Source of the DNA: Squalus acanthias
Lineage: Eukaryota
Assembly (NCBI GenBank): GCA_030390025.1
Contig: JASTWF010000334.1
Coordinates: 124,001 to 188,000 of the forward strand
Reading direction: 5' to 3'
Length of the DNA: 64,000 nt
In this document: in pieces, positions 12,168 through 14,473 of the stretch
Numbering within the stretch: the first letter of the stretch is position 1
Layout of the letters: the number at the start of each line of letters is the position of its first letter
Made by a program: the position numbers and the translations under genes
Notes under the pieces: generated by a model
What the model saw: the letters and a program-made list of their open reading frames with translations, nothing else
Database searches by the model: none
What the model was told of the DNA's origin: nothing

Positions 12168-14473
12168 TTACCCTTTTATTAGGGCCTCCCAACGATTTCG
12201 GAGTGCTTTCCTTCTCTTTTTACAGGATAACTTTAACAGACACAACACCATGATTAGTTGTACTACTACTATTGTGTGTGAACCTATTTGGATCCATGGA
12301 GGGATCTCGACATTCAAACCAAGTCCCACCAGGGCGGGGAAGCCATTTCTTTTATTTCTTCCCCCGCTTCCCTGTTCCGTTGTTTGAGGGTGTAGAAGTG
12401 TTTTTGAGAGAGTTCAACTTTCTTCATTAGTTCTGTGAGGTGTTCGGGCAGAGGAGGAATTTCATACCCAAACCATGTTACGTATTGCTGCAGGTCCTGT
12501 ACCGTGTCGTTCACCGTGGGGTGTACCGTGGTGAAATCTGAAATGGGGATGCTGCGCTCTTGCGCCACCTGAACCTCTGTGTGGTGTTTGAAGCTGAAAG
12601 TTTTGTCGGCGACAGGGCACCAAGTGTCTCGGTGTACCCGATACTGGTCCACACTCGTCGTGAAGCAGTACGTCCCGTTGCCCGTGTATGCTATCTGGGG
12701 TGGAACGTGGCCCTGGGCCATCACCTCCATGGTGCATTTGATGGGCTCTGCACTTTCCGATTCAAACCCACACACTGGTCGAGCGAATGTGTTCAGGTGC
12801 TGGGGACACAACACCACGTGCGCGCCCCTGCTCTGGCACCCCTTGAGGTCAGTGCTGGTCATGACGTGCACCCACTTTATTATGAACGGTGGGGTCCCAT
12901 TATGCCGTGCACCCCGTTCCTCAGGACGCCAATGTTTTCTACCCGGTACACCGGTGCTGGCCGCAGTGACCTGCCCATTACCGGCATCCGGAGTACAATC
13001 CCCATTACTGTGTGGTTGGACTGGCCACAATCAACTGGAACCGGGTAGGCCTCTGAGGCCAGCCGGAGTTGACACGGGCTCATCAGATTATCATACGGGC
13101 TCAGCGCGGTGAGGTGCCGGTTGCTAACCCAGGAAGGGTCGCGACCTTGCTGCAGGTCCTCCAAATTACTGCGCCCTTCGTTCAGCAACCACGCACCGTA
13201 CAACACACACGCATCATTTCTAGCTGCCTGTGCCGACGCATTCCGATCCTCCCTGATCAGACTATTGATCGTCTGAGCGTGCGCCTCCAGCTCGGCTATG
13301 ACCTCCTTTAAATGTATGGTCTTAGCCTGGTCCTCCCGTAACTCTGACCCCTCTTGCTCGTTACCCTCCCCCAGTATCTTTCGCAGCTGATCCCTTAGAG
13401 TGTTGACCTGCATCTGCAGCTGTGCATCGTCCCAATTGTTTATCAGAGACGTTCCTGTGCTGAACGCTGTGGCAGCATCGTTGAACACCCCTCTCCTCTG
13501 TCTCCCCGAACCATCGCGACTGTTCGTATTAAATGTATATAACCCTTCCCAACTTTCATCCCCGTAACTTAGCTCGTAAAACTGGCGGAGCATCACTTTC
13601 AACAAGGTCTCGTAAAGCCTCTCCGTTTCTGCCGGACACCACTGGGGCAGCTGCACTCGGGTTAAATTCAAAATGACCGACGCTACCTCATAATGTACAT
13701 CATGATACAAGATCTTTCTGGTCGGGACCAACACGAACCCGTTTCTCGGTCCCGGTGTGGTGGCGGGACACCTAATCTCTGTTCCCTGTGTCGGTGGGGC
13801 TGTGGGCAGGGGCTTCCTCTCCTGTGCAACGAGTTCTGTGGCATTTACTGTGTTGAGAGGGTCTGGGATCACGCAGGAGTCCAAACTCCGATCCCGGCCC
13901 CGGAGTCCTGCCATTGCCGTGAAAAGGCAATCGACACACGCATCAGGCAGCTCCGTTCCGACCCCCACACACACATGTAAATCCCCTGCTCCTCCTTCCA
14001 CCACTTGTTCCAGCACACTTCCACTCCCCCATTCGTCCCCGTAATCTGTCGGTACGTGTCATCCCCCAGTCTCTCCCAGTTCGCGATCTGTTACCCTAGG
14101 CCTGGTCCAACTTTCTCAACCATCGTCCCAAGGGAATGTGTCCCTCACATTTTAAACAAATGCGCTTCCCCTCGGTTGCCCTAACCCGTGTGGCTGTGAT
14201 CTGCAGATTGGGACACGGTATGGATGCTTCCCCAAATGTGAAGCCGGTGTGGTTGGACTTTCTAGTCGAATTCGACCCCAACCACCCCGGCCACCTTCCC
14301 TCGTGGAAGTAAGCAGCCATCCCGTCCGCGTCCCCTGTCCAGCCCCGCTGTGTCACGGTGGGTCCGTTTCCTCCTGTGCAGCCGTAGAGGAAGGACACCT
14401 CGGTGTCTCCTCTCTCCATGTGTCCCGTTCCCACCAGAATTATGAGCACGCTCAGTCTTAGGGTTGTCTCCAT
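12168..14473 (-). pseudogene. env: Envelope/fusion glycoprotein, foamy/loki/paramyxo-F-like, frameshifted
   Basis: Splice acceptor at 14500-14501, signal peptide METTLRLSVLIILVGTG, furin site RQRR (~13492-13503) then GVFNDAATAFSTGTSLIN, heptad region, Cys-rich region, WWD motif, TM IGSHTIVVVQLIMVLCLL, basic tail, stop at 12168. Assembled from ORFs 14096-14521, 12880-14016 and 12314-13030. Confidence 0.8.

Follow-up and report, generated by a model that had tools for sequence, protein, structure and literature searches.

The DNA analysed here is a 64,000-nucleotide stretch of the Squalus acanthias genome (assembly GCA_030390025.1, contig JASTWF010000334.1, positions 124,001 to 188,000; hereafter the window), and its subject is a decayed retroviral envelope gene (env) lying on the minus strand within a provirus of an endogenous retrovirus (ERV) family designated ERV-1. 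An earlier note, made from the letters of the window, had described this env as that of a shark provirus with a foamy virus- or lokiretrovirus-like envelope resembling the fusion protein (F) of paramyxoviruses, and the motifs that it quoted were all found, every one of them on the minus strand.

The env pseudogene and the provirus that carries it

The env features are as follows.

12168..14473, minus strand (14473 to 12168): env pseudogene, ~770 codons in four frame pieces
14473-14423, minus strand: Met and signal peptide
13771..14422, minus strand: N-terminal region of the surface subunit (SU), with Ig-like features (a lead only)
13492..13770, minus strand: F2-like segment (CPATTPGP...WCPAETE...) up to the furin site RQRR
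13503-13438, minus strand: furin site and what follows it, RQRR then GVFNDAATAFSTGTSLIN
13189..13491, minus strand: fusion peptide (GVFNDAATAF...), heptad region A and a conserved Cys (NDAC)
13431-13372, minus strand: heptad stretch DDAQLQMQVNTLRDQLRKIL
12452..13188, minus strand: head domains with YRVENIG and the Cys cluster (CG..C..GNGTYC..FCF)
12948-12928, minus strand: YRVENIG
12850-12665, minus strand: Cys cluster of five motifs (DLKGC, VLCP, PVCG, IKCT, GNGTYC)
12171..12451, minus strand: heptad region B, WWD, transmembrane helix and basic cytoplasmic tail
12331-12323, minus strand: WWD
12278-12228, minus strand: transmembrane helix
12221-12207, minus strand: basic tail KKRRK

When intact-frame relatives were aligned to the window, a premature stop at ~14095 and four frameshifts (near 14066-14120, 13887-13911, 12907 and 12320-12326) were located, so that the frameshifts expected in this gene are present but the breaks are more numerous than had been implied, and this copy is dead and without function. 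Its reading frames are more than a product of chance, because the same frames recur in 105/105 scored genomic matches (E <= 1.7e-148). The segment ahead of the cleavage site is not short, as had been supposed, since ~327 aa separate the Met from RQRR, with an N-terminal region of ~230 aa followed by the F2-like segment of ~95 aa (the length of the latter also in relative L028). The conserved Cys of NDAC lies 95 residues past the cleavage site, within an F1-like ectodomain of ~390 aa. The absence of CX6CC held in every env piece of the window, but the accompanying absence of CXXC did not, since one such tetrad, CLKC, is found in the N-terminal SU region. The combination of a gamma-type Env, namely an SU CXXC paired with a CX6CC in the transmembrane subunit (TM) and an immunosuppressive domain, was not found in this env; the env of a second provirus nested in the same locus, ERV-2, in contrast has CX6CC (...CAMIGAECC...) in its piece at 17370-18329.

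The env-bearing ERV-1 provirus occupies 10852-26243 on the minus strand and keeps both long terminal repeats (LTRs), a primer-binding site (PBS), eight gag codons, a 71-aa pol tail and env. Its parts and those of ERV-2 are listed from 5' to 3' of the provirus.

24955..26243, minus strand: ERV-1 5' LTR, 1289 bp, TG...CA, direct repeat with 10852-12018
24933..24949, minus strand: ERV-1 PBS of tRNA-Arg(TCG) type, decayed in this copy, 5 nt past the LTR
24889..24912, minus strand: first 8 gag codons of ERV-1 (MDNFKGKR), matching the gag start of full-length copies, then a breakpoint
14824..24888, minus strand: nested ERV-2, unrelated and gamma-type, interrupting ERV-1
24405-24888, minus strand: ERV-2 5' LTR, first ~36-43 nt gone
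24384-24396, minus strand: ERV-2 PBS, after the 5' LTR
19704-18931, minus strand: ERV-2 integrase
18908-17370, minus strand: ERV-2 env with CX6CC, gamma-type
15367-16795, plus strand: long interspersed nuclear element (LINE) inserted in ERV-2
15344-15358, minus strand: ERV-2 polypurine tract (PPT), before the 3' LTR
14824-15343, minus strand: ERV-2 3' LTR
14621..14823, minus strand: C-terminal tail of ERV-1 pol (integrase), 71 aa
10852..12018, minus strand: ERV-1 3' LTR, 1167 bp, direct repeat with 24955-26243

Both the pol tail ahead of env and the LTR of about 1.2 kb that had been named as its neighbours were thus recovered. In self-comparison, the two ERV-1 LTRs show 40 differences over 1144 aligned columns (Kimura two-parameter distance 0.036) plus 113 gap columns, and their flanks, GCAC and CCAC, agree at 3/4 positions, leaving no clean target-site duplication. 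By tblastn, the pol tail shares 80-89% identity with the C-termini of integrase (IN) in full-length copies, and homology to these copies picks up again at precisely 14823, within the integrase tail.

The earlier note had taken env to be spliced; what lies ahead of the pol tail, at 14824-15343, is not a leader exon but the 3' LTR of ERV-2. A second direct repeat was obtained in self-comparison (14824-15307 and 24405-24888, 484 bp, 98% identity), and its reading as a duplicated leader with a GT donor was ruled out because the repeat proved to be an LTR, that of another abundant ERV which has a PBS and a PPT of its own, and because full-length ERV-1 copies lack it. In the genome, 40 matches to this LTR were scored of 1377 candidates, at 96-98% identity and with the same terminal base in all, several of them as pairs spaced 7-8 kb. 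The locus is a remnant of nested insertion and deletion, not a spliced env copy. Its simplest history would begin with insertion of the gamma-type ERV-2 into ERV-1 pol, followed by one deletion that took everything from gag codon 9 to far into pol, most of which was lost, and the first part of the ERV-2 5' LTR as well. The env has gathered five disabling lesions.

As side observations on ERV-2, its LTRs are ~520 bp long (TGTGGAAG...CGACA) and belong to a young and abundant LTR family, and its AT-rich region 20000-24000 resembles 40535-43229 of the window, so that most of the ERV-2 gag-pol appears replaced.

Fold of the Env protein and its relatives

An AlphaFold2 model of the F2-like and F1-like ectodomain of a natural copy, made from a 50-row alignment, gave a predicted local distance difference test score (pLDDT) of 68.2 and a predicted template modelling score of 0.58, superseding an earlier model from 27 close copies (61-93% identical) with a pLDDT of 34.5. 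Residues 10-70 of the model (pLDDT 77-91) align to the F2 of paramyxovirus F, long helices are formed in the part holding the fusion peptide and heptad region A, the head domains are the best modelled (pLDDT 80-96), and a helix at 446-480 lies in the heptad region B part. A Foldseek search of the PDB with this model returned 242 matches at E <= 0.001, the best being the F protein of human parainfluenza virus 3 (1ztm, E 4.2e-11), and among the matches listed through rank 50 all were F proteins of paramyxoviruses or pneumoviruses. With VIA-align, 235 of 984 chains reached Z >= 8 and the 50 matches listed were all F proteins; the best had a Z of 12.6 with a root-mean-square deviation of 11.0 over 336 residues, and 6w16 (Z 12.5, 7.3 Å over 333) and 8dmj (Z 12.4, 4.9 Å over 291) followed closely. 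Model residues 10-414 are collinear with F residues ~26-431 in these alignments.

The F-likeness that had been read from the motifs is therefore matched by structure across both F2 and F1, and the predicted architecture of the protein is that of a paramyxovirus or pneumovirus F, with an F2-like segment, a furin site, a fusion peptide, heptads, a Cys-rich beta head and a transmembrane helix. The order of the parts from F2 through furin site, fusion peptide, heptad region A, head and heptad region B to the transmembrane helix is collinear with F (1ztm, 2b9b, 6w16, 8dmj) at near-equal lengths. Sequence identity, however, is 8-15%, the ERV-1 Env has no membership of the Pfam family PF00523 (Fusion_gly), it is encoded by an LTR retroelement between pol and LTR rather than by a negative-strand RNA virus, and it has an N-terminal module of its own rather than a separate attachment protein.

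Among predicted viral structures, the best matches were glycoproteins of lispiviruses and arliviruses and baculovirus F (E 7e-14 to 1e-12), with paramyxovirus F0 also among the best. The predicted Env of walleye epidermal hyperplasia virus 1 (WEHV-1) stood at rank 12 with E 1.8e-11, that of walleye dermal sarcoma virus (WDSV) at rank 25 with E 6.9e-8, and feline foamy virus gp130 at rank 48 with E 7.8e-4. The epsilonretroviral Env, baculovirus F/Ld130, errantivirus Env and the lispivirus and arlivirus glycoproteins are like the ERV-1 Env in being, by predicted structure, class I fusogens of F type (E 7e-14 to 7e-8), but no link to it at the level of sequence was shown, except that one relative of the family (P0043) gives a weak match to Pfam Baculo_F that does not reach the cut-off (E 0.0011). 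The BFVD matches Q9WHI8 and A4GTG3 are walleye epsilonretrovirus (WEHV-1, WDSV) Env models, and these predicted folds suggest that epsilonretrovirus Env may also be of F type, of which no mention was found in the part available of Fernandez et al. (Sci Adv 2024, PMC11468914).

Single-sequence searches with the env pieces of the window gave no match in Pfam or, by phmmer, in the PDB, and a search for protein homologues with env returned only 2 proteins, both from sawshark. A profile of 27 env copies, run against 1.84 billion representative proteins, retrieved 46 at E <= 0.001; ten of these were looked up and eight could be named, coming from five sharks, a skate and two frogs (Pelodytes and Xenopus tropicalis).

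Against the PDB, the env profile placed foamy virus Env at ranks 1, 2 and 5 of 15 (8ozh, E 0.0018; 8rm1, 0.024; 8rm0, 0.16), in an alignment that covers the NIG, CG..C, G.Y.V and CF motifs quoted beforehand and joins the head domains to foamy Env residues 660-839, so that the proposed profile check also favoured the earlier expectation; the remaining 12/15 matches were coiled-coil or unrelated proteins at E >= 0.095. The shark genome has genuine foamy-like env loci of its own, with 11 matches to PF03408 (Foamy_virus_ENV) above the cut-off (best 88 bits), none of which is a member of the ERV-1 family, and hhalign joined the ERV-1 profile to this PF03408-type env over the head-domain region with E 1.7e-4 and a probability of 50%. 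PF03408 itself gave no match to the window env, its intact relatives or 50 family members. Foamy Env (gp130; 8ozh, 8rm0, 8rm1) and ERV-1 Env are thus alike in a fusion subunit with an F core and in profile similarity over the head motifs, but in foamy Env, ~980 aa in total, there is a leader peptide, and a large receptor-binding domain is inserted between the subunits, whereas the ERV-1 Env carries its extra module at the N-terminus, has a short F2-like segment and goes undetected by PF03408. The genome's foamy-like env sites lie at G000:C20:14482918-14485643 and in five other places (L053-L057), with a foamy-type reverse transcriptase (RT) at L057:3596-4447.

Weaker leads were also obtained. 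In ESM features, the nearest named clusters of the Env are Gypsy/Baculo_F and Fusion_gly at 0.93-0.94, which serves as a lead only. For the N-terminal region, the nearest ESM-Atlas clusters are V-set and I-set Ig domains at a weak 0.79-0.82, Pfam Ig_3 matches 3/50 family members with a best E of 0.16, and one relative (P0012) is named 'Ig-like domain-containing protein' in UniRef; the ~230-aa region is possibly Ig-like.

Some env relatives are gene-model chimeras with host genes. Host gene models of other sharks (P0043, P0011, P0006, P0015 and P0002) contain or end in fragments of the env family, and examples include fbxo15 isoform X3 (Heterodontus), a cadherin, 'Niban 1-like', a zinc-finger protein and GPR139. 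These models are probably annotation chimeras and possibly exonised ERV pieces.

The ERV-1 family and the position of its Pol

A search of the 3.7-Gb assembly with a 392-aa env piece gave 105 scored matches, out of 9,378 first-look candidates, at 63-100% identity; the ERV-1 family is very large and has been amplified massively in the shark. Sequence like the window LTR flanks gag-pol-env on both sides in 5/8 fetched neighbourhoods, and one such LTR pair spans 10.56 kb. The full-length form of ~10.5 kb consists of LTR, PBS (tRNA-Arg TCG), gag (CCHC), protease (PR), RT, tether, RNase H, IN, env and LTR. Pfam recognises RVP, RVT_1, RT_RNaseH_2 (the tether), a second RNase_H, Integrase_H2C2 and rve in these copies, and zf-CCHC in 1/2 gag ORFs scanned (21.6 bits, cut-off 20.8), and no Pfam family in their env. 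All full-length copies examined have env immediately after pol and ahead of the 3' LTR.

The PBS, which had been called Arg-like, is an 18-mer forming the exact complement of the 3' end of tRNA-Arg(TCG) with CCA in 2/3 full-length copies (L010 and L015), and in the third copy read (L014) it differs at two positions. A tRNA-Arg(TCG) pattern, built from the PBS of other copies and with the anticodon TCG read by eye, gave 96 matches in the shark genome and 0 in the control. The tRNA-Arg(TCG) genes carry an intron-like insert of ~17 nt and stand in long tandem arrays with a period of ~1.6 kb (G000:C603, C3245, C394, C247, C26, C3390).

The ratio of nonsynonymous to synonymous substitution (dN/dS) in env is 0.04-0.19 in 17 between-subfamily pairs and 0.45-0.70 in 3 close pairs, with 8/28 pairs saturated. 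These sequence comparisons indicate that env was under strong purifying selection while the subfamilies diverged. The low between-subfamily values argue that env was a working gene during diversification of the lineage, which suggests spread by infection.

The nearest proteins to ERV-1 Pol come from frogs (43-44% identity) and coelacanth (41%), followed by fish and amphibian elements with an MLV-type IN C-domain (MLVIN_C) and then by gamma-like ERVs of birds and reptiles; MLVIN_C was not found by Pfam in ERV-1 pol. Xenopus tropicalis and Latimeria hold relatives of both the pol and the env of ERV-1. In one frog protein (P0052, 44% identical in Pol), the Pol sequence is continued by an env N-terminus resembling the one of family member P0032, and therefore pol and env are linked in frogs too.

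Trees were built from RT with tether (57 rows, 420 columns, rooted on 10 Gypsy rows; the short P0116 and three long-branch Gypsy rows left out) and from IN (44 rows; three Gypsy rows and the short ERV-2 IN left out). Their foamy-like sampling was one RT, linked to a PF03408 env of this genome, with no foamy-like IN, and they held no class II or lentiviral rows. In the RT tree, ERV-1 falls within a retroviral clade supported at 100/100, so that it is not nested in Ty3/Gypsy, and it stands outside a clade, supported at 99/99, in which the foamy-like RT is joined by all gamma- and epsilon-type rows, including murine leukaemia virus (MLV) and reticuloendotheliosis virus (REV). ERV-1, a frog and coelacanth group and a Xenopus group form a basal polytomy outside that clade, and in an approximately unbiased (AU) test a single clade of these 15 basal rows (ERV-1 with frog, coelacanth and Xenopus elements) was not rejected (p 0.39). 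Elements bearing MLVIN_C group with MLV and REV in a 100/97 RT clade that excludes ERV-1, and in the IN tree they branch as a nested series apart from ERV-1. That IN tree also groups pig NYNRIN with the frog and coelacanth relatives, with a support of 100/99.

Elsewhere in the window, further LINE copies lie at 5320-7816 and 53148-55643, 93% identical to each other, in addition to the one at 15367-16795 (+), and a CR1/L2-like RT ORF of 494 aa was read at 15217-16701. At 32042-34479 there is a tandem array of ~33-bp period that is GC-rich (0.62) and strongly GC-skewed; its minus strand can be read as a repeat ORF of PPPGLLDTIPPPP/GVIRHYPPP, and a related block is present at 26459-27168. An inverted repeat of ~1.15 kb joins 1-1132 to 46010-47161 at 80% identity.

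Lokiretrovirus affinity and its alternatives

Lokiretroviruses, which include zebrafish BHIKHARI, are characterised in the part available of Wang and Han (Mol Biol Evol 2020/21, PMC7947760) by an RT sister to all sampled retroviruses, a dual RNase H, a PF00523-like Env and an IN close to CGIN1. ERV-1 is like them in its LTR provirus with gag, PR-RT-tether-RNase H-IN and env, in an F-like Env with signal peptide, basic cleavage site, fusion peptide, coiled coils and transmembrane helix, in an RT outside foamy viruses and orthoretroviruses yet nearer to them than to Metaviridae, and in nearest relatives that have a NYNRIN/CGIN1-like IN and live in listed hosts (Xenopus tropicalis, Latimeria). 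It is unlike them in its host class, cartilaginous fish, in the lack of a PF00523 match, in a Gag with a CCHC knuckle, in the extra N-terminal region of ~230 aa in its Env, and in that no smc gene was seen. By sequence comparison, the RT position and the NYNRIN-sister frog and coelacanth neighbours appear to be the published lokiretrovirus pattern. The ERV-1 family stands at lokiretrovirus grade and not among the foamy or the epsilon and gamma retroviruses; its F-type Env is placed at this grade because of the Foldseek match at E 4.2e-11 and the Z of 12.6 together with the RT clades at 100/100 and 99/99. The relationship to foamy viruses and lokiretroviruses put forward at the outset is thus supported, with the pol sequences favouring a lokiretrovirus-like over a foamy position. 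Taken together, the locus is read, with a probability of about 0.7, as the decayed env of a large shark ERV family whose F-type Env belonged to a virus of the lokiretrovirus lineage or its sister. Formal membership is probable and not proven, since the trees lack a named lokiretrovirus reference, PF00523 gave no match and Gag has the CCHC knuckle.

Several observations weigh against this reading. PF00523 had no match by Pfam among the window pieces, their intact relatives or the 46 distant relatives, it was found in 0/50 env-family members among the 25 families listed for them, and a search of the shark genome, weakened in its first look, also returned none; in the available part of PMC7947760, lokiretrovirus Env matches PF00523 at E 2.2e-7. 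The Gag of BHIKHARI is described with a glycine-rich C-terminus, from which the CCHC of ERV-1 Gag differs. As the trees were made without a named lokiretrovirus sequence, the case for membership is built from topology, host overlap and the NYNRIN signature of the nearest relatives; the basal RT lineages form a polytomy without resolution, and the link of ERV-1 to the NYNRIN-bearing clade in the IN tree is unsupported (82/43). The Env model is a monomer of medium confidence in which residues 73-116, 137-151 and 416-444 fall below a pLDDT of 50. Three steps in the proposed working of the protein are counted on the same side: SU and TM would be joined by a disulfide like the one between F2 and F1 in F (WCP...NDAC), the receptor would be bound by the N-terminal, possibly Ig-like module, and the two heptad regions would refold into a six-helix bundle driving fusion, as in F. 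The other steps are that Env would be made from a subgenomic mRNA, that furin would cleave it into SU and TM, and that it would fuse membranes without a separate attachment protein.

The alternative that survives best, though an unlikely one, is that ERV-1 is a foamy-like ERV (Spumaretrovirinae-related, class III), the shark counterpart of CmiFLERV/XtrFLERV or 'ERV-Spuma', with a divergent foamy Env. Foamy Env chains were indeed the sole significant PDB matches of the env profile, and the genome's foamy-like env was reached by hhalign at E 1.7e-4. Foamy PR-RT (225 bits) and prototype foamy virus integrase (91 bits) were likewise the best PDB matches of pol, but the MLV RT score of 223 bits ties with the former. 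The 11 genuine PF03408 env loci are none of this family, and feline foamy gp130 ranks only 48th among the viral models. In the RT tree the foamy-like RT groups with gamma and epsilon types at 99/99 without ERV-1, and the AU test rejects ERV-1 and the foamy-like RT as one clade (p 0.006), a result that is itself tempered, to the cost of the lokiretrovirus reading, by a group named after the tree had been seen and by a long foamy-like branch (1.53). Foamy Gag is not known to carry Cys-His boxes and the foamy protease is of A9 type, whereas Pfam gives RVP for ERV-1, and its Gag has a CCHC knuckle.

The literature gives this alternative some weight as well. In the parts available, Aiewsakun and Katzourakis (PMC5512871) report a shark and frog 'FLERV' clade (CmiFLERV/XtrFLERV) of which pol alone was detectable, PMC10699275 reports shark 'Spuma' ERVs (ERV-Spuma-Sca) without detectable Gag or Env domains, and a 2024 survey (PMC11089739) places most shark ERV RTs in clade III. 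Compared by description only, these elements are like ERV-1 in their shark and frog hosts and in an env and gag unrecognised by foamy or Pfam queries, as would be expected for ERV-1, but the ERV-1 RT does not stand with the foamy-like RT of the shark genome.

Quite improbable is the alternative of an epsilon-like or canonical class I retrovirus with an F-type Env, on the model of the walleye epsilonretroviruses. The Env model does match WEHV-1 (E 1.8e-11) and WDSV (E 6.9e-8), and the pol of ERV-1, beyond its own group, is closest to that of fish and amphibian elements whose IN has the MLV-type C-terminal domain; such elements, however, form with MLV and REV the 100/97 RT clade from which ERV-1 is excluded, they are nested away from it in the IN tree, and ERV-1 pol has no MLVIN_C. 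Least probable, and already largely refuted, is a Ty3/Gypsy (errantivirus-like) element with a captured F-type env or a free-standing paramyxovirus-like endogenous viral element (EVE), for although the ESM clusters include Gypsy/Baculo_F env, the best-ranked viral structures are those of lispivirus glycoproteins and baculovirus F, and 'paramyxovirus-like EVEs' are reported from sharks in the available part of PMC11089739, the split between ERV-1 and 8-10 Gypsy rows is supported at 100/99-100 in both the RT and the IN tree, Pol contains a second RNase H besides the retroviral tether, and env stands between pol and 3' LTR in every full-length copy examined, with the same pol-env linkage in frogs.

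Cartilaginous-fish endogenous foamy viruses have reportedly been treated by Wang, Chen and Cui (J Virol 2023), which may bear on whether the ERV-1 lineage already has a name. The suggestion that the family might be undescribed in cartilaginous fish stands in part. The available main text of PMC7947760 leaves cartilaginous fish unmentioned, a row of its supplement ('Orectolobiformes, Chondrichthyes, 3, 0') records 3 genomes and 0 positive, and Callorhinchus and Rhincodon are there without the asterisk carried by the lokiretrovirus hosts Xenopus tropicalis and Latimeria; of literature joining lokiretroviruses with sharks or cartilaginous fish, only the survey PMC11089739 turned up. On the other hand, the published pol-only 'foamy-like' and 'Spuma' ERVs of sharks, as far as those sources could be consulted, could be the same lineage.

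A broader and rather doubtful proposal is that the F-type fusogen is the ancestral retroviral envelope, loki-, foamy and epsilonretroviruses having inherited one ancient F-like env acquired before they split, instead of each taking up an env separately, with receptor modules added at different places (here an N-terminal, Ig-like one). If this were true, the shark lineage would be a bridge at the level of sequence, its Env profile reaching foamy Env, its Env fold matching F, the F of baculoviruses and errantiviruses and epsilonretrovirus Env, and its pol standing at lokiretrovirus grade. That foamy Env shares the F core is reported in the available part of Fernandez et al. (PMC11468914), where lokiretroviruses are not mentioned; new with respect to earlier work is that foamy Env and an Env of lokiretrovirus grade are linked by sequence at the profile level, beyond the shared F fold.

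For the lokiretrovirus reading itself, a virus of that lineage, or its sister, would have invaded cartilaginous fish and been amplified there. A lokiretrovirus-like family, at high copy and in many diverged subfamilies, is thereby placed in a class with none in the 2020 screen, and its Env may explain the shark 'foamy-like' ERVs that earlier reports had left without an env.

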